DNA from: Candidatus Firestoneibacteriota bacterium
GTDB lineage: Bacteria; Oederibacteriota; D2-FULL-39-29; JBDRBU01
NCBI GenBank assembly: GCA_043822305.1
Contig: JBDRBU010000121.1
Coordinates: 1-21,327, forward strand
Length of the DNA stretch: 21,327 bases
Reading direction: 5' to 3'
This document shows, piece by piece, positions 5,389-16,351 of this stretch. Numbering within the stretch: position 1 is the stretch's first letter; each line of letters opens with the position of its first letter. The notes beneath the pieces are model-generated. The model saw only the letters and a list, made by a program, of their open reading frames with translations. It ran no database searches and was not told the origin of the DNA. Position numbers and translations under genes: made by a program.

Positions 5389-5443
5389 ATAATCGCAACT
5401 TTTAGGTTGCGATTATAACCCGCAGGCTAAAGCCTGCGACTAC
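5389..5443. repeat. Inverted REP doublet (GTAG family)
   Basis: 11-bp stem ATAATCGCAAC/GTTGCGATTAT (5389-5416) and CGCAGGC-TAAA-GCCTGCG-ACTAC (5421-5443); the two are diverged inverted copies. Confidence 0.7.
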
Positions 5444-5462: not shown

Positions 5463-6383
5463 ATGGTAAGAAAAATTGTAATAATAGGAATTGCAGGTTT
5501 TCTAATTGGTGGATGTGGCACGGCGACGAGGGTGACAAAAGAAGATGTTATGTCCGTTAAGCAGACCGAGAAAGTTGAAAGTAAATATACAGGACCTAAA
5601 AGAAGAATTGCTGTTATTGATTTTGAAACTAAAGAAGGTTATGCAAAAAGACTTGGCACAACTGCTTCATCAATTTTAATGACCGAAGTAGGGAAATCAG
5701 GAAAATTTATTCTAATTGAAAGGGAAAAAATAAATAAATTGTTAGAAGAACAAAAATTAGGGCAAACAGGTATAATTGACTCAAATACTGCTGTATCTGT
5801 TGGTAGAATTTTAGGATTAAATGCTTTAATTACTGGCTGTGTATCTCAGTTTGGTGTAAATACCGAGTCATCACATGCTTTAATTGCCCAGAGCAAAAGG
5901 CAGATTGCAGAAGCAACGGTTGATATCAGGATAATAGATGCTACAAATGGTAGGGTTTTATATGTGGATTCGGGAAGTGGGAAAGCAGAAAAGTCAACAG
6001 GAACATTTCTGGGAATGGGTTCTTCAAGTGGGTATGATGAAAGAATAGAAGGAGATGCTTTAAGAGCGTCAATAGTTAAAGTTATAGAAAATATAATATA
6101 TCAAATTAATAAAACTCCTTTTACCTGCAGGGTGGCTGATCTGGAAAGTGAAAAGTTGTACTTAGATGCGGGTAAAGAGTCCGGACTTCAAACGGGTATG
6201 AATCTAACAGTTTATAAATTAGGCAGAGAGATTACAAGTCCGACAACAGGATTAGTGATTGGAAGGGTTGAGGAAAAGTGCGGTGTGATTCAAATTATAG
6301 ATTTCTTTGGCGAAGATGGTTCTATGGCCAATATAGTTTCAGGTAAAGCAGGTAAGGGAGATTTGTGTAAATTAAATGAGTAA
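5463..6383 (+). CDS. CsgG/HfaB-family lipoprotein with FlgT_C-like C-terminal domain
   Basis: GGGAGG RBS; lipobox IGGC; IAVIDFE, F.LIER..I..LL.EQ.L, G..LG...LITG.VSQFG, VDIRIID..G; C-terminal YLDAG..SGL..G..L.VY..G.EI.SP.TG. Confidence 0.8.
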   Translation: MVRKIVIIGIAGFLIGGCGTATRVTKEDVMSVKQTEKVESKYTGPKRRIAVIDFETKEGYAKRLGTTASSILMTEVGKSGKFILIEREKINKLLEEQKLGQTGIIDSNTAVSVGRILGLNALITGCVSQFGVNTESSHALIAQSKRQIAEATVDIRIIDATNGRVLYVDSGSGKAEKSTGTFLGMGSSSGYDERIEGDALRASIVKVIENIIYQINKTPFTCRVADLESEKLYLDAGKESGLQTGMNLTVYKLGREITSPTTGLVIGRVEEKCGVIQIIDFFGEDGSMANIVSGKAGKGDLCKLNE

Positions 6384-8415
6384 AAAACATGAGTTAATAG
6401 GGATATTGTGGTTTGTCTTGAGTATTTTTTTAATGATTTCATTATTGTCTTTTTCAGGTGGTAATTACCTTGGATTAATAGGCAAGTATGTGCAATCGGT
6501 TTTTCTTTATTTATTTGGTTTATCTTCTTATCTTTTTCCATTTATATTTGGTGTAATTGGTTATTTTACATTTGTAGATAAGAAATTTGAAAAACCACAT
6601 TTTAAGATAATTGGTAGTTCTTTGTTTATTATTGCTTTATGTTTGCTGTTTTATTTGCTTGGGTTATCGAACTCTGAAAGCAATATGCTTGGATTTTTAA
6701 TTGGTTTGGGAGTTATTAAAACAACAAGTAGATTAGGAGGATATATATTTTGTGTTATAACTTTTGTTCTCTCTATTTATTTTTTAGAATTCGAAGAAAT
6801 TTTCAAAAATCTTTTAAGTAATATTATCCAGATTCTTAAACAAAAATTTAATAAGCCGGTGAAGATTGAAGACAAAATACAGAAAAAAGATGAACATAAG
6901 GAAGAGATTAAGCCAAGGAAGTTGCAAAAGAAAGATATAAAAAAAGAGATTAAAGAAGAAAAACCTTCTTTGGGGACACCATTAGTTAGCCCCGCATCTT
7001 CTGGTGCATGGGTAAAGTATGAGTTACCTCTAATGGATCTTTTAAATAATATACCGACTACTGTTTCTTTTAAGGAAGATTTAAGGGCAAATGAAGAAAC
7101 AATTAAAAAGACTTTGAAAAATTTTGGTATTGATGTAGAAATTTCAAGAACAGTTAAAGGTCCTGTCGTTACGAGATACGAAATTAAACCAGCACCCGGA
7201 ACAAAAATAAATAAAATAGTTAGTTTATCAAATGACTTAGCCCTCGTACTTAAAGCAACGCATATCAGGATCATTGCTCCTATTCCAGGCGAATCTGCCG
7301 TGGGTATTGAAATTCCTAACAAAAAATATAGTCTAGTTACTTTAAAAGAAGTAATTCAATCAGATAGGTTTGCAAATTTTAAAGGGGTTCTCCCTGTTTC
7401 AGTAGGTAAAAGTGTAGATGGCGAAGTCCTGGTTTATGATTTAGCCGAGATGCCGCATTTGCTTGTGGCCGGGGCAACAGGTTCAGGGAAAAGTGTATGT
7501 TTAAGTACAATAATAATTAGTTTGCTTTATAAGTTTACCCCATATGAATTAAAACTTTTATTAATCGACCCTAAAAGAGTTGAATTATCTTTGTATAAAG
7601 ATTTACCTCATTTATATTCTCCAGTGATAAATGATGCTAAAAAAGCTACAGATGCTTTGAAACTACTTAATAAAGATATGCAGGATAGGTACAACAAATT
7701 ATCTCAGGTTAATGCGCGAGATATAATTTCTTATAATAAGGTGGCCAAAGAAAAATTACCATATATAGTTGTGGTCATAGATGAATTAGCAGACTTAATG
7801 TTGGTCTCAGCCAGAGAAATAGAGGAGGCTATAACCAGACTGGCCCAGATGGCCAGGGGAGTTGGAATTCATCTGATTTTTGCTACACAAAGACCATCTG
7901 TTGATATTATAACCGGAGTTATAAAAGCAAATTTTCCTTCAAGAATTGCGTTACAGGTTTTTTCCAAAGTAGACTCAAGGGTTATACTTGATACGGGAGG
8001 AGCAGAAGATTTACTTGGTAAGGGAGATATGTTAATGTATTTAGCCGGTTTTCCAAAACCAGTTAGAGCCCAAGGTGCATATGTGTGTGAATCAGAGGTT
8101 AAAAAAATTATTAATTTTTGGAATGGACAGGGAAAACCAATTTATTATGGTCCTGACGAGAAAGAGAATATTAGCCTTAGCGATACAGAAGAAATGGATG
8201 AATTATTTAAGAAAGCATTAATACTTATAAAAGAAAGAAAAAGGGCATCGGCTACATTGATTCAAGGGGCATTGCATATCAGTGGAGGAAATGCATCAAA
8301 TCTAATAAGCATTATGGAAACAAAAGGTTTAATAAGTCCAAGTACTGGCTCAAAATCAAGAGAAATTTATTTTGACAAGATCGATGAATTATTGGACAAG
8401 TTTGATAAAAAATGA
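6376..8415 (+). CDS. ftsK: DNA translocase FtsK/SpoIIIE
   Basis: N-terminal TM domain, GPVVTRYE, RIIAPIPG, PHLLVAGATGSGKS (Walker A), IDPKRVEL, VVIDELADLM (Walker B), ATQRPSVD, GAEDLLGKGDM, C-terminal gamma domain. Confidence 0.97.
   Translation: MSKKHELIGILWFVLSIFLMISLLSFSGGNYLGLIGKYVQSVFLYLFGLSSYLFPFIFGVIGYFTFVDKKFEKPHFKIIGSSLFIIALCLLFYLLGLSNSESNMLGFLIGLGVIKTTSRLGGYIFCVITFVLSIYFLEFEEIFKNLLSNIIQILKQKFNKPVKIEDKIQKKDEHKEEIKPRKLQKKDIKKEIKEEKPSLGTPLVSPASSGAWVKYELPLMDLLNNIPTTVSFKEDLRANEETIKKTLKNFGIDVEISRTVKGPVVTRYEIKPAPGTKINKIVSLSNDLALVLKATHIRIIAPIPGESAVGIEIPNKKYSLVTLKEVIQSDRFANFKGVLPVSVGKSVDGEVLVYDLAEMPHLLVAGATGSGKSVCLSTIIISLLYKFTPYELKLLLIDPKRVELSLYKDLPHLYSPVINDAKKATDALKLLNKDMQDRYNKLSQVNARDIISYNKVAKEKLPYIVVVIDELADLMLVSAREIEEAITRLAQMARGVGIHLIFATQRPSVDIITGVIKANFPSRIALQVFSKVDSRVILDTGGAEDLLGKGDMLMYLAGFPKPVRAQGAYVCESEVKKIINFWNGQGKPIYYGPDEKENISLSDTEEMDELFKKALILIKERKRASATLIQGALHISGGNASNLISIMETKGLISPSTGSKSREIYFDKIDELLDKFDKK
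6985..7016 (-). repeat. Short palindromic element inside the ftsK linker
   Basis: Reverse complement TTTACCCATGCACCAGAAGATGCGGGGCTAAC aligns to 20261-20295 (27/32 matches, one 3-nt gap). Confidence 0.65.
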
Positions 8416-8443
8416 TAAAATAAGGGCATGGGGAGGTTTTAAT

Positions 8444-9715
8444 ATGGAAAGCAATAAATTAGACATAACTATAGTTGGTGGAGGAATGATAACGGCTGTT
8501 CAGATACTTCCTTCTATTTATCAACTTAAAAAATTGGGACTAATTAAAGATATAAATATAGTGGCCTTAAATGGTGGCTTTCTTAAATCCCTGGCTGAGA
8601 ATAAAACATTAAAAGACGCATTTCCGAATCAATCATTTACTCCTTGCCCTGATTATAAAAAAATTGATATAAATAAAAATTTTCCAGACCTTTATAAAGA
8701 AGTTATAAAAAAAATGAAACCTAAAAATCTTGTTGTTGTGGCTACACCAGACAACCTTCATTACAAGGTAATCAAAGAAGCATTATCAAATGACCAGAAT
8801 ATTATGAGTGTAAAACCACTTGTCTTAAATTATAAAGAATCAAAAGAGATTGAGAATTTAGCTTATAAGAAAGGTTTATTTGTAGGAATTGAATATCACA
8901 AGAGATTTGATGATAGAAGTCTTATGGCCAGACGTCGATACCGCAGTGGTGATTTTGGGGAATTTAAATTAGGGCAGGCACATTTGATGGAAAAATGGTA
9001 TTACAGACATTCTAATTTTCAAAACTGGTGTACTGTAAAAAATTCTGATGTATTTTCATATGTTGCCTGTCATTATATTGACCTGGTAGCATTTATAACC
9101 GGATTACTTCCTACTCAAGTTTCAGTTTATGGGATAGTTGATAAATATCCTAATGGTTATGAAGGATTCTTATGGACCGATGGTAAAGTAATCTGGAATA
9201 ATGGTGCTTGTTTAAATGTTCAAAACTCGTTAAGTTATCCAGACAAAAGTCCGGGTGGTAACAGTCAAGGAATGGTTTTATTTACACAAGGGAAAGACGA
9301 TGGTGGAGTAATATCTCATTCTGACCAGTTTAGAGGAGTAAAGCATTCTTTTTTAACAAAAGGGACTGACCCGGGTGATACATTTTATAATGAACCAAGC
9401 CCAGATTATTTTCAATATGTGTCTAAAGGAGGTATTGGATTAGTTCCTGTCGGTTATGGTTATCGCTCAATAGAAGCTATTGTTCATTCGACTTTAAAGG
9501 TAAATGAAGCAACTGCTCTTGAAAAAAGAAAAAAAATCATAAAAGAAATTGATAAAGAAGGAATCATAGCCACACCGGCAAATAGTTTTTATAATGAACT
9601 CGTAATGGAAGCGGGTAGGTTGTCTATATTAAATGAAGGTAGGGATGTAGTGATAGAATATGGTCAAGAACCAAAAGTAAGATTTAAAGAAATTTCAGAA
9701 TACAAAAAATATTGA
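8444..9715 (+). CDS. Gfo/Idh/MocA-family NAD(P)-dependent oxidoreductase
   Basis: GGGAGG RBS before ATG 8444 (ORF track starts at 8372); IVGGGMI Rossmann motif, VATPD.LH, VKPL, EYHKRFD, CHYIDL. Confidence 0.85.
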   Translation: MESNKLDITIVGGGMITAVQILPSIYQLKKLGLIKDINIVALNGGFLKSLAENKTLKDAFPNQSFTPCPDYKKIDINKNFPDLYKEVIKKMKPKNLVVVATPDNLHYKVIKEALSNDQNIMSVKPLVLNYKESKEIENLAYKKGLFVGIEYHKRFDDRSLMARRRYRSGDFGEFKLGQAHLMEKWYYRHSNFQNWCTVKNSDVFSYVACHYIDLVAFITGLLPTQVSVYGIVDKYPNGYEGFLWTDGKVIWNNGACLNVQNSLSYPDKSPGGNSQGMVLFTQGKDDGGVISHSDQFRGVKHSFLTKGTDPGDTFYNEPSPDYFQYVSKGGIGLVPVGYGYRSIEAIVHSTLKVNEATALEKRKKIIKEIDKEGIIATPANSFYNELVMEAGRLSILNEGRDVVIEYGQEPKVRFKEISEYKKY

Positions 9716-9719
9716 AATA

Positions 9720-9778
9720 GGTCTAATTGCTTCGCAATTAACCATGACCAATATTATATTTTACACTAAGGAAAGTCA
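9720..9778 (+). repeat. 60-bp structured repeat, single copy (59 bp)
   Basis: GGTCTAATTGCTTCGCAATTAACCATGACC...AAGGAAAGTCA; 1 deletion and 1 substitution versus the other copies; ends directly at the ATG of 9779. Confidence 0.95.
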
Positions 9779-11764
9779 ATGCAAAAACTTGATTATACTA
9801 AATATAAATTAAAACCAAAAGAAGAAATTTTAGATATTCTATCTTCTAAAAATAATATCTTTATTATTTCTTGTAATAAATGTTTTAAAGAATTTACCCC
9901 GGAAATAGAACCAGAATGTGAAGAATTAACAAATATTTTAAAAGAATCTGGAAAAAATATAGTTAGATGTCTGCCTTTGGATTTCCTGTGTAACAAATAT
10001 TTAACCAAGAAAGAAATAGAAAAAGTAAATAATGATATATCAAAATCAGATGTAGTTGCTGTAATTTCATGTGGCTTGGGGATTCAAACAGTGGCTGACA
10101 TATTAAGTAAGTCAGTATATGGTGTTACTGATTCATTAGATCAAGGTGGTTATCATGGGATTACACTTTCAGCTGAAAAATGTAATGCGTGTGGGAATTG
10201 CTTTCTAACTCTAACTTCTGGTATCTGCCCTGTAGTTCATTGTTCAAAAAGTTTAGTTAATGGACCTTGTGGAGGAGCAAAAAATGGTAAATGCGAGATA
10301 GACAAAAATAAAGAATGTGCCTGGGAAAATATATATAAAAGATTATCGGTTCAGAATAGAACAAAAGAGATTGTAGATAAAAAACCACAGTTAAGAGACT
10401 ATTCAAAAGGTGATTTTAATTTTATTAAATCATATCTAGATAAAATAAGAGAAAAAAGATACGAAGGATTTTATGGTGGACTTTATCCAGAAGAAAAAAA
10501 GGAATTAACCAGGGCTAACTCAATAGAAAAATTCCCCGAAGTTAATACATTTATTATCCCGCTTTTACAGCATACTGGTGCAGTTTGTGAGCCACTTGTC
10601 CAAACAGGAGATATGGTTAAAGTTGGGCAGAAGATTGGAGATTCAAAAGCATTTGTATCATCACCAGTTCATTCAAGTATAAGTGGGAAAGTAATTGCCA
10701 TTGAGTTAAGAAAACATCCCTTACTTCCTATCCCGGTAACTTCTATCGTTATTGAATCTGATAAAAAAAGAACATATGATGATTCAATAAAGCCATCTGG
10801 AACTATTGAAAGTTTATCAAAAGAAAAAATTATTGAAATTATTAAAGATAAGGGTATTGTCGGTCTGGGTGGTGCTCAATTTCCAACATATGTTAAACTG
10901 AAATCTCCTAAGCCAATAGATACTATTATTATAAATGGATGCGAATGTGAACCATTTCTTAATTCTGATTACAGGATAATGATTGAGTACTCAAAAGAAA
11001 TAATATCCGGGTTAAAACTTATAATGAGATCGGTAGAGGCAAAAGATGGAATTATAGCCATTGAAGATAATAAACCAGAAGCAATATCTAAATTAAGCGA
11101 GTTGGTCTCTAACGAATCCAATATTAAAGTAGTAAGTGTTAAAACAAAATATCCTGAAGGTGCTGAAAGAATGCTTATTAAAAGAGTTCTTAATCGAGAG
11201 GTGCCATTAGGAGGACTTCCTTTTGATGTTGGTGTTGTAGTTAATAATGTAAGCACTGTTTATGCCATATGGGATGCTGTCTATAATGGTATGCCTTTAG
11301 TAAAAAGAATTGTAACAGTTGCTGGTGAAAATGTAGGTAAACCAGGAAATTATGAAATACTAATTGGAACACCATTAACAGATATAATAAAGTATTGTGA
11401 TATAAAAATGAAAGATGAATTATTATTAAAAATGGGCGGTCCTATAATGGGTATTTCTCAGTTTGATTATAATGTTCCAATTATTAAAGGAACAACAGGT
11501 ATGGTTATAGTTAAAAAATCGGATATTACTGATGTGGAAACTTCTTGTATAAAATGTGGAAGATGTGTAGATGTTTGTCCAATGGAATTAAAGCCTTCTT
11601 ATTATGTGTTATTAGCAAAAGAGAATAATTTCACTGAGATGGAAAAACACGGTGTACTAAATTGTATTGAATGTGGGTGTTGTGAAAATATATGTTCTTG
11701 TAAGTCATCTATAATGGAAATAATAAAAAAAGCAAAAAAAATTATCAGGGAGAAGAAAAAATAA
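9779..11764 (+). CDS. Fusion of a MetV-like (MTHFR small Fe-S/Zn subunit) domain and an RnfC/RsxC-like NADH/FMN-binding domain
   Basis: aa ~1-210: CNKC, SCGLG, CxxCxxC, GICP...CSKSLVNGPCGG...CE...CAW; aa ~230-661: F.GG..P.EKK, GIVGLGGAQFPT.VK, NGCECEP, KYP.GAE, MGGP.MG and two 4Fe-4S motifs. Confidence 0.9.
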   Translation: MQKLDYTKYKLKPKEEILDILSSKNNIFIISCNKCFKEFTPEIEPECEELTNILKESGKNIVRCLPLDFLCNKYLTKKEIEKVNNDISKSDVVAVISCGLGIQTVADILSKSVYGVTDSLDQGGYHGITLSAEKCNACGNCFLTLTSGICPVVHCSKSLVNGPCGGAKNGKCEIDKNKECAWENIYKRLSVQNRTKEIVDKKPQLRDYSKGDFNFIKSYLDKIREKRYEGFYGGLYPEEKKELTRANSIEKFPEVNTFIIPLLQHTGAVCEPLVQTGDMVKVGQKIGDSKAFVSSPVHSSISGKVIAIELRKHPLLPIPVTSIVIESDKKRTYDDSIKPSGTIESLSKEKIIEIIKDKGIVGLGGAQFPTYVKLKSPKPIDTIIINGCECEPFLNSDYRIMIEYSKEIISGLKLIMRSVEAKDGIIAIEDNKPEAISKLSELVSNESNIKVVSVKTKYPEGAERMLIKRVLNREVPLGGLPFDVGVVVNNVSTVYAIWDAVYNGMPLVKRIVTVAGENVGKPGNYEILIGTPLTDIIKYCDIKMKDELLLKMGGPIMGISQFDYNVPIIKGTTGMVIVKKSDITDVETSCIKCGRCVDVCPMELKPSYYVLLAKENNFTEMEKHGVLNCIECGCCENICSCKSSIMEIIKKAKKIIREKKK

Positions 11765-11769
11765 GTGGT

Positions 11770-12606
11770 ATGAATAGAACAAAGTTAGGTTCTGCAACGG
11801 CTAAAGGTGGATTTGCTAATGAAAGAAGTATTTGCAAAAAGTTTAATAATTGGGAAAAAGATAATGAAGTACAAATGTGGTTTGACATTATGGGATATGA
11901 CTTAAACAAGGTTGATTCTGTAAAAGCCATTCAGGTTCCTACGAGAATCAAAAAAAGCGAGATAAATAAATTTGGAGTTAACGAAGAGCAATATGATAAA
12001 TTTATTCGGTTTAAAAAAGCAGATGCTCAATTAAGAATAGTTATTGTTATTAGCAAGATATTGAAAATAGAAAATCTATCGCTTAAAAAAGCCAACTCTG
12101 ATGCCGATTATAACCAGGTAGATAAAAGAACAGTAGATATTTATCAAAAAATGTGGGGTTTTGATGACGAAATATTTTGCTGGTTAAGATTATTTACCGG
12201 AGAAAGTAATCCAAAACGGTTTAGTAATATAATAGGGAAGATTAAATTAAAGGACAAGAGAAGAATCTTCTTTGATGAAATGCCTGAAAGTGTGCAAAAC
12301 AAAATTATAAAGTTCTTTAATAACAATAAAATAATAGTTATCAGTGATATCCTAAAAGGAAGAGGAGGACTTTCTGCTAATTGGATGTTAGTTACAAAAT
12401 ATAATAGAAAAGATGATACAACAAGTTGGGTGCTTAAAGATATAAATGCAGTTATGAATTTCTTTGGTAATGGTAATGTAATAATGTCACCAAAAGGGAG
12501 TCTTTACATTGGTAGAATTACTATGCAAAGGAAAGGTGGGACTCCAGACCCTACAAAACTACAATTTAAGATAAAGCCATGTCAATTATTTGAAATAGGA
12601 ATATAA
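11770..12606 (+). CDS. Type II restriction endonuclease, HinP1I-like
   Basis: GS.TAK.GF.NE, AD...LSLK catalytic region, NQ.DK, FTGE, DKRR.F, DIL.GRG..A.W, SP.GS...GR.T.QRKGG, LQFKI.P..LF match my recollection of R.HinP1I. Confidence 0.8.
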   Translation: MNRTKLGSATAKGGFANERSICKKFNNWEKDNEVQMWFDIMGYDLNKVDSVKAIQVPTRIKKSEINKFGVNEEQYDKFIRFKKADAQLRIVIVISKILKIENLSLKKANSDADYNQVDKRTVDIYQKMWGFDDEIFCWLRLFTGESNPKRFSNIIGKIKLKDKRRIFFDEMPESVQNKIIKFFNNNKIIVISDILKGRGGLSANWMLVTKYNRKDDTTSWVLKDINAVMNFFGNGNVIMSPKGSLYIGRITMQRKGGTPDPTKLQFKIKPCQLFEIGI

Positions 12607-12608
12607 TT

Positions 12609-13427
12609 ATGGAAATTAATAAAGTATTTTTAGGTGATTGCATAGAAACAATGAAAAAGTTACCTGCTAAAACTATAGATTTGATATTTGCTGATCCTCC
12701 ATTTAATATTGGTATTAAGTATGATGAGTATAAAGACAACATACCATATGATAAGTATTATAACTGGTCAGAAAAGTGGATAAAAGAAATTTATAGACTG
12801 CTGAAAGATGATGGGACGATTTATATTGCTATAGGTGATGAGTTTGCAGCAGAAATTAACTTAATATTAAAAAAAGCAGGATTTCATTTTAGAAACTGGA
12901 TTATTTGGTATTATACTTTTGGGCAAAGTCAAAGAAAGAAGTTTAATCGATCACATACACACATTTTATATTTTACCAAAGATAAGAGCAGATTTACATT
13001 TAATGATAAGAATATTAGAATTCCTTCTGCGAGGCAACTTGTTTATAGAGATAGACGAGCAAATCCTATTGGCAAACTACCAGACGATGTTTGGAAGTTT
13101 TCCAGGGTTTGTGGAACATTTAAAGAGCGTATAATAAACCATCCATGTCAAATGCCCGAAGATTTATTAGAGTTAATAATAAAGGCAAGTTCTAATGAAG
13201 GGGATTTAGTGTTAGACCCATTTGGGGGAACAGGAACAACAGCGGAAGTTGCAAAAAGATTAAAACGGGATTATATAACAATGGAAATATCTGAGGATTA
13301 TTATAATATTATTATCAAAAGGTTAAACAATAAACTTAGTTATATAAAAAGGAATGGAAAAACTGATTTATCGGAAGAACAAAAAACTTTGTTTGATGCA
13401 ATTAAGGGAGAAATAATATGCTTATAA
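12609..13427 (+). CDS. Beta-class N4-C/N6-A DNA methyltransferase
   Basis: IDLIFADPPFN (motif IV) precedes HPCQMP and VLDPFGGTGTT (motif I); adjacent to the endonuclease. Confidence 0.92.
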   Translation: MEINKVFLGDCIETMKKLPAKTIDLIFADPPFNIGIKYDEYKDNIPYDKYYNWSEKWIKEIYRLLKDDGTIYIAIGDEFAAEINLILKKAGFHFRNWIIWYYTFGQSQRKKFNRSHTHILYFTKDKSRFTFNDKNIRIPSARQLVYRDRRANPIGKLPDDVWKFSRVCGTFKERIINHPCQMPEDLLELIIKASSNEGDLVLDPFGGTGTTAEVAKRLKRDYITMEISEDYYNIIIKRLNNKLSYIKRNGKTDLSEEQKTLFDAIKGEIICL

Positions 13428-14029
13428 CTCAACTTAAAAATAAAGAAGAAATTATTCCATATATAAAAGAAAAGGTGCTATTAATAAGTTGTTCGGGATG
13501 CCGTGAGGTGTATTTCCCGATAAAAGAGATGGAAGAACTTAAATCAGAGTTGAAGAAGGGCGGGTTGGTTATATCTGATGAGTTAATATTTGACTATATA
13601 TGTAATGAAGATTGGACAAGAAAAAGATTTGAAATATATAAAGATAAAATAAACGAGGTAAATACAATTCTTGTTTTTTCCTGTGGAGTTGGAATACAAA
13701 CAGTTGCTTCTTTACTTCCTGAAAAAATCATAATTTCTGGAAGTGATACTTTTTATTTACCAGGTTTTTCTGGTATTACTCCTTTAGAGTATGACTGTGA
13801 ACAGTGTAGTGAGTGTATGTTGGGCTACACGCTTGGGATTTGTCCAATAACGGCTTGCTCAAAAGGTTTACTTAATGGACCGTGTGGTGGGGCAAAAAAT
13901 GGAAAATGTGAAGTAAGCAAGGATATGGAATGTGGTTGGCAGAGGATACTTGATAAAAGTAAGAATCTGAATGAAAAGATTAAGATAACAGAAAAAATTA
14001 GATTAAGAAATTATTCGAAATTAACATAG
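13418..14029 (+). CDS. metV: MetV-like methylene-THF reductase small subunit (MTHFR C-terminal domain protein)
   Basis: AAGGGAG RBS; CSGC, SCGVG, CEQCSEC, GICPITACSKGLLNGPCGG...CE...CGW; directly upstream of metF. Confidence 0.88.
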   Translation: MLITQLKNKEEIIPYIKEKVLLISCSGCREVYFPIKEMEELKSELKKGGLVISDELIFDYICNEDWTRKRFEIYKDKINEVNTILVFSCGVGIQTVASLLPEKIIISGSDTFYLPGFSGITPLEYDCEQCSECMLGYTLGICPITACSKGLLNGPCGGAKNGKCEVSKDMECGWQRILDKSKNLNEKIKITEKIRLRNYSKLT

Positions 14030-14207
14030 TCTGTTCGCTTTGGCGAACAACTATTCCTAATATTATTATTTACATTAAGGAAAGTCAGGTCTAATTGCTT
14101 CGCAATTAACCATGACCAATATTATAATTTTACATTAAGGAAAGTCAGGTCTAATTGCTTCGCAATTAACCATGACCAATATTATAATTTTACATTAAGG
14201 AAAGTCA
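14028..14207 (+). repeat. 60-bp structured repeat, three tandem units (14028-14087 divergent; 14088-14147 and 14148-14207 identical)
   Basis: Exact 60-bp periodicity; the divergent unit keeps the hairpin with a different stem sequence and the same 3' TTTACATTAAGGAAAGTCA. Confidence 0.95.
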
Positions 14208-14225
14208 TAATTAACGGAGGTAAAA

Positions 14226-15110
14226 GTGAGATTAGCTGATTTGACCAAGAACGGTAAATTTGTAGTAACTTCAGAAGTAGGACCGCCAAAAGGTTTTCAA
14301 ATAGATAAAATGCTGCATGAAGCAGAAATTTTAAGAGGTAAAGTAGCGGCCATAAATGTTACGGATAATCAGTCATCAGTTATGCGACTTGGTTCATTAG
14401 CTGTTTGTAAGGTCCTGAAAGACAAAGGACTTGAGCCAGTTTTTCAGATTACCTGTAGAGATAGAAATAGATTGGCGTTACAATCTGATATTTTAAGTGC
14501 GGCTTTATTCGGCATAGAGAACTTATTGCTTTTAACCGGTGACCATGTAAAATTAGGTGACCATAAGGATGCAAAGCCTGTATTTGATTTAGATTCAGTA
14601 TCATTAACATATGCTGTAAAGAAACTTGAAGAAGGTTTTGATTTAGCTGGAAATAAACTTGATGGAGAGCCACCAAAGTTTTGTAAAGGTGCAGTTATTT
14701 CTCCTTGTGCAGAGCCATTAGAGCCACAGCTTTTTAAAATGGAGAAAAAAATAAAAGCAGGGATAGAATTTTTTCAAACACAAGCAGTTTATGAGGTAGA
14801 TAAGTTTGATAAGTTTATGAAAAGGGTAAAAGATTTTGGAGTTCCGATATACGCTGGTATTGTTATTTTAAAATCAGTTGGAATGGCTAAATATATGAAT
14901 GAAAATGTTGCTGGTATTTATGTGCCGGACAATCTTATAGAGGAATTAAGAAAAGATAAAGAAAAAACAAAGTCTGGACAGGTAGGTATTGAAATTGCGG
15001 CTAAGTTAATAAAAGATCTAAAACCTCTTTGTCAGGGAATTCATTTAATGCCACTTGGCTGGGATGATAAAGTTCCAAAAATATTAGAATTGTCTGGATT
15101 GAAGGTCTAA
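14226..15110 (+). CDS. metF: 5,10-methylenetetrahydrofolate reductase
   Basis: GGAGG RBS, GTG start; E..PPKG, INVTDN, CRDRNRLALQSD, LTGDH, FFQTQAVY, GIHLM. Confidence 0.95.
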   Translation: MRLADLTKNGKFVVTSEVGPPKGFQIDKMLHEAEILRGKVAAINVTDNQSSVMRLGSLAVCKVLKDKGLEPVFQITCRDRNRLALQSDILSAALFGIENLLLLTGDHVKLGDHKDAKPVFDLDSVSLTYAVKKLEEGFDLAGNKLDGEPPKFCKGAVISPCAEPLEPQLFKMEKKIKAGIEFFQTQAVYEVDKFDKFMKRVKDFGVPIYAGIVILKSVGMAKYMNENVAGIYVPDNLIEELRKDKEKTKSGQVGIEIAAKLIKDLKPLCQGIHLMPLGWDDKVPKILELSGLKV

Positions 15111-15223
15111 TTGCTTCGCAATTAACCATGACCAATATTATAATTTTACATTAAGGAAAGTCAGGTCTAATTGCTTCGCAATTAACCATGACCAATATTA
15201 TAATTTTACATTAAGGAAAGTCA
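15104..15223 (+). repeat. 60-bp structured repeat, two identical tandem units
   Basis: 15104-15163 and 15164-15223; the first supplies the metF stop, the second ends at the nuoA ATG. Confidence 0.95.
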
Positions 15224-15580
15224 ATGATAAACGAATATCTTTCTGTGTTTATTTTTTTAATATTAGCCTTGGGTTTCACGATAGGTGGACTAGCATTTTC
15301 ATTTTTAGTAAGAGATTCAAATCCATCTAATAAAAAGTCAAGCACATATGAATGTGGAGAAGAGCCTATAGGAACTGCCTGGATTCAGTTTAATATGAGA
15401 TATTACCTGTTTGCACTTGTTTTTGTTATATTTGATGTTGAGGTTATATTTTTATACCCTTGGGCTATAGTTTTTAAAGAAACAGGACTTCTTGCATTTT
15501 TTGAAATGATTGTATTTCTGGGAGTTTTAATTATAGGACTTGTTTATGTGTGGAAAAAAGATGCTCTTAAATGGGAGTAA
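15224..15580 (+). CDS. nuoA: NADH-quinone oxidoreductase subunit A
   Basis: Three TM helices, K..TYECG, YYLFALVFVIFDVE..FLYPWA, GL.YVWKK.AL.W. Confidence 0.95.
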   Translation: MINEYLSVFIFLILALGFTIGGLAFSFLVRDSNPSNKKSSTYECGEEPIGTAWIQFNMRYYLFALVFVIFDVEVIFLYPWAIVFKETGLLAFFEMIVFLGVLIIGLVYVWKKDALKWE

Positions 15581-15582
15581 TT

Positions 15583-15774
15583 ATGATAAAGTTAAAGAAG
15601 ATAACCGGTGAAGAAATATTAGTTAATCTTGATCTAATAGAGACAATTGAACGACATTCCGATACAGTCATTTCTCTAACAACAGGAAATAAACTCCTGG
15701 TAAAAGATTCTTTAGATGAAATTACTAATAAAATAGTTGAATATAAACGTTCGATAAAGAGTCAAAATGCCTAA
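15583..15774 (+). CDS. flbD: FlbD/SwrD-family protein
   Basis: GGGAG RBS before ATG 15583; MI.L....G....N.DLIETIE...DTVI.LT.G.K..VK.S..EI...IVEYKR. Confidence 0.8.
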   Translation: MIKLKKITGEEILVNLDLIETIERHSDTVISLTTGNKLLVKDSLDEITNKIVEYKRSIKSQNA

Positions 15775-16351
15775 TCAAATTTCACTTCTAAAATCAAAAT
15801 TACGCAATGAAATCGAGAAAAAAAGGAATTTGCTTTCGCAAAAAGAAATAATAAAAAACAGTGCAATAATAAAAAAAAGATTGTTTGCAACTAATGAATT
15901 TAAACTTGCAAAAAATATTATGTTTTATGTTTCATTTAGAAGTGAAGTTGTAACTTACGATATGATAAAAGAATCTTTACAAAAAGGCAAAAGGATATTT
16001 GTTCCAATCACTAAATTAGAAGAAAAAAAACTTATAATATCCGAAATAAAAGATTTCGATAAAGAATTAGAGGTATCAACATATAGAATATTAGAGCCAA
16101 AAATTAAGTTTCAAAGAGTTTGTGATGCTAATTTATTAGATCTAATTATAGTTCCAGGTGTTGCTTTTGATTTGAAAGGCAATCGTTTAGGATATGGTGG
16201 AGGGTATTATGATAAATTCTTAAAGAATATGCCTTCTAATATTCCCAGAATCGGCTTATGTTTTAAGTGTCAAATTATAAAAGAAATCCCGGTAGATATA
16301 CAAGACGAAAGAATTAATATACTTATAACCGAAAAAGGCAAAATCAAATGA
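15767..16351 (+). CDS. 5-formyltetrahydrofolate cyclo-ligase
   Basis: K..LR, FYVSFRSEV.T, ILEP, DLIIVPGVAFD..GNRLGYGGGYYD. Confidence 0.95.
   Translation: MPNQISLLKSKLRNEIEKKRNLLSQKEIIKNSAIIKKRLFATNEFKLAKNIMFYVSFRSEVVTYDMIKESLQKGKRIFVPITKLEEKKLIISEIKDFDKELEVSTYRILEPKIKFQRVCDANLLDLIIVPGVAFDLKGNRLGYGGGYYDKFLKNMPSNIPRIGLCFKCQIIKEIPVDIQDERINILITEKGKIK

Follow-up and report, generated by a model that had tools for sequence, protein, structure and literature searches.

Short hairpin-and-tail repeats at gene junctions around metF in a Candidatus Firestoneibacteriota bacterium: a lineage-specific family that is probably non-autonomous mobile DNA

The window analysed here is a 21,327-nt stretch of DNA from a Candidatus Firestoneibacteriota bacterium (contig JBDRBU010000121.1 of assembly GCA_043822305.1, called C121 among the contigs of this genome), and it belongs to a 2.15-Mb draft of 125 contigs with a G+C content of 31.6%. 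It carries genes for MetV, for methylenetetrahydrofolate reductase (MTHFR, encoded by metF) and for NuoA, preceded by a fusion gene with MetV-like and RnfC-like domains, and three of the junctions between these genes are occupied by six copies of a unit of about 60 nt that consists of a bulged hairpin and a conserved tail (Table 1). An earlier note, made from the letters of the window without database searches, had described six head-to-tail copies of such a unit at these three junctions, and reading of the sequence bears this out, with tandem repeats called where the note had placed them. The length of 60 bp that it gave holds for five of the units, the copy at 9720 having 59 nt.

Table 1. 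Repeat units in the window and the genes that adjoin them
Feature	Position	Strand	Evidence or context
Type A unit, single, 59 nt	9720-9778	+	covariance model, 75.1 bits
Type B unit, different hairpin, same tail	14028-14087 (14027 with the preceding T)	+	84.4 bits
Two identical type A 60-mers in tandem	14088-14147, 14148-14207	+	78.7 bits each
Two identical type A 60-mers in tandem	15104-15163, 15164-15223	+	sequence, covariance model
GFO_IDH_MocA-type oxidoreductase gene	8372..9715	+	upstream neighbour of the 9720 unit
Fusion gene, MetV-like domain (DUF5981) and RnfC/Nuo51-like domains	9779..11764	+	start codon directly after type A unit
MetV, MTHFR C-terminal-domain protein, DUF5981	13418..14029	+	stop codon from type B unit
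metF (MTHFR)	14226..15110	+	between two identical 120-nt arrays
nuoA	15224..15580	+	Shine-Dalgarno AAGGA, 6 nt before ATG, within type A unit

Each unit opens with a hairpin of 25-27 nt, in which three outer and seven inner base pairs are separated by an invariant bulged C, and which is joined to a conserved 36-nt tail. The plan of the hairpin is NNT, the unpaired C, T(G/A)NNNNN, a loop of 3-6 nt, NNNNN(C/T)A and ANN; there follows a linker that defines two types (ATGACC in type A, ATTCCT in type B), then an AT-rich stretch and then TTACATTAWGGAAAGTCA. The single type A unit at 9720 has the hairpin GGT-C-TAATTGC/GCAATTA-ACC, the linker ATGACC and the tail end AAGGAAAGTCA, and it differs from the other type A copies of the window by one A fewer and one T-to-C change in the tail; it starts 4 nt past the TGA stop of the oxidoreductase gene, and its 3' end touches the ATG at 9779. 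The type B unit at 14028 (hairpin AGT-C-TGTTCGC/GCGAACA-ACT, linker ATTCCT, then the tail) forms with its first bases the TAG stop of MetV (14027-14029), and the array of two type A units behind it is followed by a native spacer that has been kept, TAATTAACGGAGGTAAAA, and by the GTG start of metF. At the far end of metF, the first unit of the second array supplies the TAA stop (15108-15110), and the second unit touches the ATG of nuoA (15224). Tandem Repeats Finder reports a period of 60 at 14059-14207 (2.5 copies, 97% matches) and at 15103-15223 (2.0 copies, 100% matches), and a 16-nt core of the tail occurs six times in the window at no more than 3 mismatches, compared with a shuffle mean of 0.64, six being reached in 0 of 100 shuffles.

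The four 60-mers around metF are 100% identical, and so are the two 120-nt arrays that they form. An extra A that makes a perfect TATAAT on both strands is found only in these four copies, and type A copies elsewhere in the genome are 56-59 nt long. The complete identity of four copies in a draft of 125 contigs might suggest that the doublets and the matching arrays are artefacts of short-read metagenome assembly. However, the gene order across both arrays is the same as in all relatives, and tandem or stacked units occur at many other loci with copies that are not identical. Assemblers, moreover, tend to collapse tandem repeats and not to invent them, and an artefact is therefore considered very improbable.

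The hairpin varies in sequence while its pairing is kept. In an alignment of 36 distinct units, 360 of 360 cells of helix 1 are paired, one of them as G-U, and 8 of the 10 pairs have changed on both sides; sliding the partner column by 1-3 positions lowers overall pairing from 94% to 27-47%, and RNAalifold predicts the same helix 1. The selection of these 36 units demanded pairing at the six variable inner pairs; the two variable outer pairs (GGT/ACC, AGT/ACT, ACT/AGT, GCT/AGC) were unconstrained in that choice. A control anchored on the tail instead of the stem finds, immediately 5' of the linker, a bulged hairpin with 9 bp or more for 45 of 70 tails (no more than 2 mismatches), with 447 Watson-Crick pairs and one G-T pair among these 45 hairpins, the other 25 tails being second tails of doubled tails, units with an extra hairpin, degenerate copies or chance matches. 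About nine inner-stem variants are counted in the 36-unit alignment, and the compensatory difference of the 14028 hairpin, to which the earlier note had drawn attention, is real and is one of these variants; its view of a hairpin under structural selection likewise agrees with the pairing counts. A stem so poor in wobble pairs would be more in keeping with a DNA hairpin, or with arms copied from one another, than with an RNA helix that drifts under selection. A second helix, between UUCC of the linker and GGAA of the tail, is paired in 80.6% of cells with weak covariation; it was dropped for this weakness as a family-wide feature and was kept for type B alone.

The units are by no means confined to the window. 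The tail TTACATTAWGGAAAGTCA has 45 matches in the genome at no more than one mismatch (27 forward and 18 reverse), and the reversed control pattern has none. A covariance model was built from the alignment of 36 distinct units, and 150 candidates out of 3732 in a first look were scored with it; among these 150 there are 79 genome matches at E of 0.01 or less and 51 full-length units at 56 bits or more on 30 contigs, comprising 14 of type A and 37 of type B. Immediately downstream of 18 units outside the window lie genes for L20, HU, GMP synthase, acyl carrier protein, RACo, FeoB, an amine oxidoreductase, S12, PilO, SerRS, an ATPase-operon protein, a DEAD helicase, an enzyme of the CCA-adding/polyA-polymerase type, a TRAP transporter, a HAMP protein and three proteins without a Pfam match. 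Because these genes are unrelated to one another, the family is not tied to one-carbon (C1)/folate metabolism.

This distribution bears directly on the possibility, raised by the earlier note, that the units are an undescribed cis-regulatory RNA dedicated to C1/folate genes. The six copies around metV, metF and the RnfC-type gene would speak for such an RNA, as would another copy that precedes the gene for RACo, a corrinoid-activation protein. However, 51 full-length copies on 30 contigs beside varied downstream genes contradict it, and relatives that have the same C1 genes are free of units; we regard a dedicated C1/folate RNA as scarcely credible. The note had also spoken of units that punctuate the MTHFR locus, and as a statement of specificity this fails for the same reason, the genome-wide covariance model giving no restriction to C1 or methionine genes. 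A comparison with Rfam, which the note had suggested, gave no match to a known family, either at the gathering score over the whole window or at E of 1 or less over 13950-15300, and a literature search within a limited collection found no description of the 60-nt unit.

A comparison with relatives shows the same junctions without units. The relatives with genomes belong to an order with 12 genomes, and those compared come from outside the family of the unit-bearing genome. The order MetV-MetF-NuoA is kept in nine of the same-order genomes, and none of the nine has units at these junctions: between MetF and NuoA, eight of them have 0-18 nt and one has 91 nt of unrelated sequence, compared with 113 nt here, and the MetV|MetF gap holds 18-310 nt of unrelated sequence, compared with 196 nt here. 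Among 80 metagenomic metF loci the covariance model detects no unit (best E=0.96). The closest metagenomic contig, L122, encodes a MetF with 95% amino acid identity and has a DNA identity of 77-86% over four main aligned segments (83-86% for the two largest); its MetV|MetF gap is 15 nt, and its metF and nuoA overlap in ATGA. Where L122 reads ...ACA TAA TAAATGGAGGG...ATG, the window reads ...ACA (TAGTC ... GTCA) TAA TTAACGGAGG...GTG, that is, a 181-nt insertion made up of a T and three units lies cleanly between the last sense codon of MetV and the old TAA, with at most a possible duplication of TA. The old TAA is still present behind the insertion, and the new TAG comes from the unit. At the other end, MetF is shortened by a TAA stop inside a unit, and two units stand before the same NuoA ATG as in L122. 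For the junction at 9720 the comparison is with distant relatives, in which the gap between the oxidoreductase and RnfC-fusion genes is 0, 1, 9 and 10 nt in four members of a sister family (f3) and 50 nt in a further genome (G003), compared with 63 nt here; four others have no close upstream gene. Because all three window junctions are unit-free in relatives, including L122 with its DNA identity of about 85%, as the empty-site check proposed in the earlier note had envisaged, the units are insertions, and a gain in this lineage is the simplest account of them.

Insertion is also suggested by the way in which modules are combined elsewhere in the genome. Modules of hairpin and linker stack (H-ATTCCT-H-ATTCCT-...-tail), and doubled tails occur. 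The genome has in addition a plain repetitive extragenic palindromic (REP) element of the GTAG type, CGCAGGCTAAAGCCTGCGACTAC, with 75 sites that bear its tag: 56 are plain, 6 have a unit of hairpin, linker and tail in the loop, 9 have a further hairpin that we call X, and 4 are of other kinds. X (CCTGTACC...ACAGGAC, about 36-38 nt; for example C41:21458-21554, C78:14077-14173 and the REP site C32:6875) is placed 3' of CTAA in two settings, REP loops and the interior of about eight type B units, a position that is like insertion beside a fixed tetranucleotide, as far as the sequence can tell. Comparison of filled with plain sites thus shows that modules were inserted into one another. The six units carried by REP elements share one common hairpin, and they may go back to a single event that was followed by spread of the composite. 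A transposable element of the miniature inverted-repeat type (MITE), about 200 bp long, with inverted repeats at its ends and a target duplication of 9 bp, CTGGTTGCC, lies inside a unit hairpin (C34:20670-20900), and the end of the same MITE touches the tail of another unit (C10:4678).

The fit of the units to their junctions is close, and it differs between the two types. For 18 of the 51 full-length units, a same-strand open reading frame (ORF) of at least 60 codons ends -12 to +10 nt from the unit start, and in 10 of those 18, all of type B, the TAG stop is made from the preceding T and the AG of the unit. A T precedes 28 of the 29 type B units that start with AGTC, the two bases before AGTC being AT in 20 (ATAGTC), GT in 5 (GTAGTC), CT in 3 and AC in 1; beyond this T the 5' flanks have no fixed word, and on the 3' side 20 of 37 type B units are flanked by TA, compared with a genome TA frequency of 0.098. 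Type A is placed differently: 8 of the 14 units have the ATG of an ORF of 118-661 codons at offset 0, and the others are internal to tandem arrays (2), precede the GGAGG-GTG of metF at +18 (1), precede a start at +3 (1), are nested in another element (1) or have no following gene (1). The word AAGGA is present in the tail of 12 of 14 type A units and in 2 of 37 type B units, which mostly have ATGGA. In an RNA fold, type B forms pairs between ACU-A-UUCC and GGAA-A-GU (-13.8 kcal/mol, z -3.05, a value reached by 0 of 200 shuffles), whereas in type A, with the linker AUGACC, the UUCC/GGAA pairing is absent (z -1.2 to -1.8). Because of the AAGGA word and the lost UUCC pairing, type A looks like a variant with a putative Shine-Dalgarno sequence that is both improved and unmasked. 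The unit copies are related, so that these junction counts are descriptive and are not independent tests.

With respect to transcription, 24 of 44 loci have the direction of both neighbours, 11 lie antisense to the two, and 7 are mixed or lack one neighbour. The single orientation and the restriction to gene junctions that the earlier note had seen hold within the window, but the single orientation does not hold for the genome. Across 55 contigs GC skew goes almost perfectly with the coding strand (r=0.98), and for this reason a replication bias cannot be separated from a transcription bias. Type A contains promoter-like words on both strands, TTGACT-16-TATAAT on the minus strand (11/12) and TTCGCA-18-TATAAT on the plus strand (10/12), and these scores of 10-11 of 12 are consensus matches only; the tRNA-Gly promoter of this genome is TTTACA-17-TATAAT. 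Promoter-like sites in the region number 41 and are not clearly above the 29.5 of shuffled sequence (standard deviation 6.3). No terminator-like site was called in any unit, and the hairpin, which has no U-run behind it, is not an intrinsic terminator.

These features might suggest that the units are primarily functional, as a portable intercistronic expression cassette, and not selfish DNA. The hairpin would then protect the upstream 3' end or insulate the cistrons, the tail would be a ribosome-binding site and the AT-rich middle a promoter, and the cassette would have spread by recombination between copies, as the promoter-early stem-loop (PeSL) cassettes in T4-type phages do. An AAGGA placed 6 nt ahead of the ATG at 8 type A loci, in a tail word unlike that of type B, would fit this account, as would the GGAA-UUCC pairing that is present in type B and absent in type A, the co-directional placement of 29 of 40 unambiguous loci, the promoter-like words of type A beside the genome's own tRNA-Gly promoter, the preservation of the tail in the sister family and the position of metF between identical arrays, which recalls the genes bracketed by PeSLs (PMC2839356). 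However, 11 of 44 loci are antisense to both neighbours; the junction spacers of relatives (0-18 nt, several longer, to about 310 nt) are all unit-free; and units also lie in REP loops and beside tRNA genes, where no translation start is needed. Furthermore, an RNA helix under selection would usually have more G-U pairs than 1/360 and 1/448, the best promoter-like match faces away from the downstream gene, the promoter-like sites do not stand out from shuffles, and the hairpin lacks the U-run of a terminator. Overall, an expression cassette is a possible but rather unlikely account of the family.

The tail is older than the hairpin variants. A scan for the exact tail in one genome each of 185,579 species gave 19 single matches, none of them (0/19) with the hairpin or linker, and these are therefore taken as chance; a scan of viral contigs gave 2 matches, of the tail alone. 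A looser tail pattern has 37 matches in this genome, 1-5 in each of four of the six f3 genomes and none in the controls or in family f2 (5 genomes). The f3 tails likewise stand behind a hairpin and a linker, within mosaic intergenic repeats, and judged from the sequences at hand the tail predates the expansion of the units. In the present genome tRNA-Arg(CCT) is followed after 5 nt by a unit, and another unit is placed between tRNA-Gly and tRNA-Tyr. Unit-like copies also stand beside tRNA genes in f3 genomes (L090/G008, 1478-1720; L091/G004; L092/G010; L093/G006), one between tRNA-Arg(CCT) and a 22-nt duplicate of the tRNA 3' end that matches each species' own tRNA, and another upstream of tRNA-Ala(CGC), amid 5' fragments of this tRNA that are present in duplicate; such copies look like remnants of integration or decayed tRNA copies.

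The tail might instead be the binding site of a chromosomal protein, such as a nucleoid-associated protein, gyrase or a regulator, with the hairpin merely a vehicle. The bacterial interspersed mosaic elements (BIMEs) of Escherichia coli carry sites for integration host factor (IHF) and gyrase. Conservation is higher in the tail than in the hairpin, and the tail is common to the sister family; an AT-rich spacer within it is flanked by the imperfect inverted repeat ACT(A)TTCC ... GGAA(A)GT, and one tail variant reads on the reverse strand AATCAATATATTA, which may fit the IHF consensus. However, no binding protein was identified, the inverted repeat (the putative second helix) is paired in 80.6% of cells with little covariation, and the IHF-like word is confined to a minority tail variant. 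A protein site as the reason for the family is thus quite improbable.

Among known systems the nearest in kind are REP elements and BIMEs, including the GTAG REPs of E. coli, Pseudomonas and Stenotrophomonas (Di Nocera et al., 2013, PMC3733652; Corneloup et al., 2021, PMC8266576). Like these, the units are short intergenic palindromic hairpins in tens of copies, often at a stop codon to which they donate TAG, their stem has an irregularity (the bulged C), and the genome has Y1 genes similar to those of REP-associated tyrosine transposases (RAYTs). The type B head, [A/G]TAGTC, contains the TAGTC that also heads the genome's GTAG-type REP (GTAGTC on the tagged strand), and like BIMEs the units form mosaics with conserved linkers. 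According to Corneloup et al., RAYTs bind folded single-stranded REPs with the 5' tetranucleotide as guide and stem irregularities as recognition features, and cleavage takes place at CT or CA dinucleotides next to the hairpin (PMC8266576); by analogy, the [A/G]TAGTC head of type B, the invariant TCT at the bulge and the GTCA end may be compatible with the RAYT model. Di Nocera et al. state that REP ends often donate TAG stops and that head-to-tail REP dimers are rare (PMC3733652); the units agree with REPs in the donated stops and depart from them in their head-to-tail order. The units differ from REPs also in that each hairpin is tied to a conserved 36-nt tail and in that the last bases of the tag (AGT) pair with ACT in the stem.

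Other families are more distant. With the ends of IS200/IS605 and elements of the PATE type, the units share an asymmetric, strand-specific form without terminal inverted repeats or clear target duplication, a hairpin with an unpaired base and, in companion X, a position 3' of CTAA in two contexts; they differ in having one hairpin per unit and not one per end, and the end hairpins of the genome's single IS200-like TnpA gene (C64) are unlike them. The phage PeSL cassettes (Arbiol et al., 2010, PMC2839356) likewise combine a repeated intergenic stem-loop with sigma-70-like promoter modules, and identical copies bracket a gene and could recombine; however, PeSL hairpins are terminators with proven promoters in a phage host, whereas the units lie in a bacterial chromosome, have no U-run and have a promoter that is a consensus match. 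By analogy, PeSL may be called the nearest functional analogue for the part made up of hairpin and promoter-like words. Correia/NEMIS, ERIC and RUP elements (Delihas, 2008, PMC2229807) are likewise small non-autonomous repeats that are co-transcribed and can alter the expression of neighbours, some with promoter-like or protein-binding motifs, but they have terminal inverted repeats, target duplications and end-to-end folding, and the units have none of these. In a test for a MITE, the unit ends (AGTCTG... and ...AAGTCA) are not inverted repeats of each other. Three further candidates were set aside: the single group II intron found (C32) has an unrelated 3' end; RNA repeats in the style of type III toxin-antitoxin systems do not suit arrays that are dispersed and not beside a toxin gene; and units do not fold end to end into a single imperfect palindrome as integron attC sites would.

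Overall, we think it probable that the units are lineage-specific, non-autonomous REP/BIME-like repeats of about 60 nt, selfish in origin, of which type A has been co-opted as an adaptor that combines a stop, a hairpin and a Shine-Dalgarno sequence. The mobile-DNA core of this reading is well supported, and so, as a prediction from sequence, is the putative role of type A as a ribosome-binding adaptor. The units would spread as folded single-stranded DNA, handled in trans by a Y1 (RAYT/TIRYT-like) HUH enzyme of the genome or by a similar hairpin-specific enzyme, and would then multiply on the spot in head-to-tail order through slippage or unequal recombination; the four identical 60-mers on the two sides of metF would represent one such local event. 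They would survive in tight operon junctions by bringing what the junction needs: type B opens with (T)AG, which would serve as a stop for the upstream gene, and type A has a TAA near its start. Type A has also lost the linker UUCC that pairs with GGAA of the tail and has AAGGA 6 nt from its 3' end, so that it may act as the ribosome-binding site of the gene with the abutting ATG.

Several observations weigh against this reading of the units as co-opted selfish repeats. The earlier note had proposed a non-autonomous mobile element or REP/HUH-type substrate, and the genome-wide spread, the nesting and the empty sites in relatives agree with it, but no TnpA or RAYT gene stands beside a copy. The genome has seven matches to Y1_Tnp, six above cut-off (an IS200-like gene of 146 amino acids on C64, four of 223-237 and one of 323, these six lying on C51, C100, C81 with two, C68 and C64) and a sub-threshold seventh in an ORF of 606 amino acids, and beside none of the seven is there a unit hairpin or tail, their flanks carrying other inverted repeats, so that there is no REPtron; two small GIY-YIG genes are likewise flanked by other repeats and not by units. 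Stacked and tandem units are all head to tail and not in the inverted pairs typical of REPs, BIMEs and REPINs (paired REP elements), and type A (GGTC, preceded by A) lacks TAG. The orientation bias of 29 co-directional against 11 antisense loci (binomial p=0.006, for related copies that are not independent) and the exact abutment of type A on ATG, which is hard to obtain from random insertion and selection alone, suggest a choice of target or a function at the RNA level. In addition, the tail, being present in four of six f3 genomes, predates the hairpin variants, and it may have its own function. Tandem copy numbers are as assembled in a draft of 125 contigs, and with the nearest unit-free relative at about 85% identity, presence/absence polymorphism and transposition are unseen at the species level.

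A bolder version would place the unit in a class of its own among single-strand DNA elements, one specialised for stop/start junctions; it would be a self-spreading intercistronic adaptor that inserts exactly before a stop or start codon, brings its own stop, hairpin, Shine-Dalgarno sequence and perhaps promoter, and is moved by an enzyme that reads the bulged-C hairpin and the ancient tail and is not a classical RAYT. Taken as a whole we judge this unlikely; if it were true, several unrelated mobile elements would have converged on junction filling in one compact genome.

Under the preferred reading of co-opted selfish repeats, repeats can colonise a compact genome with overlapping or nearly touching genes if they bring a stop codon and a ribosome-binding site, and the translation start signal of at least eight genes would now come from one subfamily, type A. 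The family is also a natural data set for enzymes that act on folded single-stranded DNA, with its roughly nine stem variants, invariant bulged C and almost complete lack of wobble pairs. For annotation it is a warning that a covarying hairpin beside metabolic genes need not be a riboswitch-like regulator. Finally, the identical arrays that flank metF offer a ready substrate by which this gene could be deleted or amplified.

Some other features of the window deserve mention. Genes for an R.HinP1I-like restriction endonuclease and an N4/N6 DNA methyltransferase lie at 11770-13427; they are absent from L122, where metV directly follows the RnfC-fusion gene, and both borders of the pair have an imperfect direct repeat of about 15 nt (around GGGAGAA...ATAA), so that the restriction-modification pair, too, is an insertion at a gene junction. 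After nuoA there follow an ORF of 67 codons (15571-15774) and what is likely a 5-formyltetrahydrofolate cyclo-ligase gene (15767-16351, named from its sequence), and not nuoB; nuoA therefore apparently stands alone beside metF, as in relatives too. A copy of the plain GTAG-type REP lies at about 5419-5443, just upstream of a CsgG-like gene at 5463, and is itself preceded by a second small hairpin, GCAACTTTTAGGTTGC.

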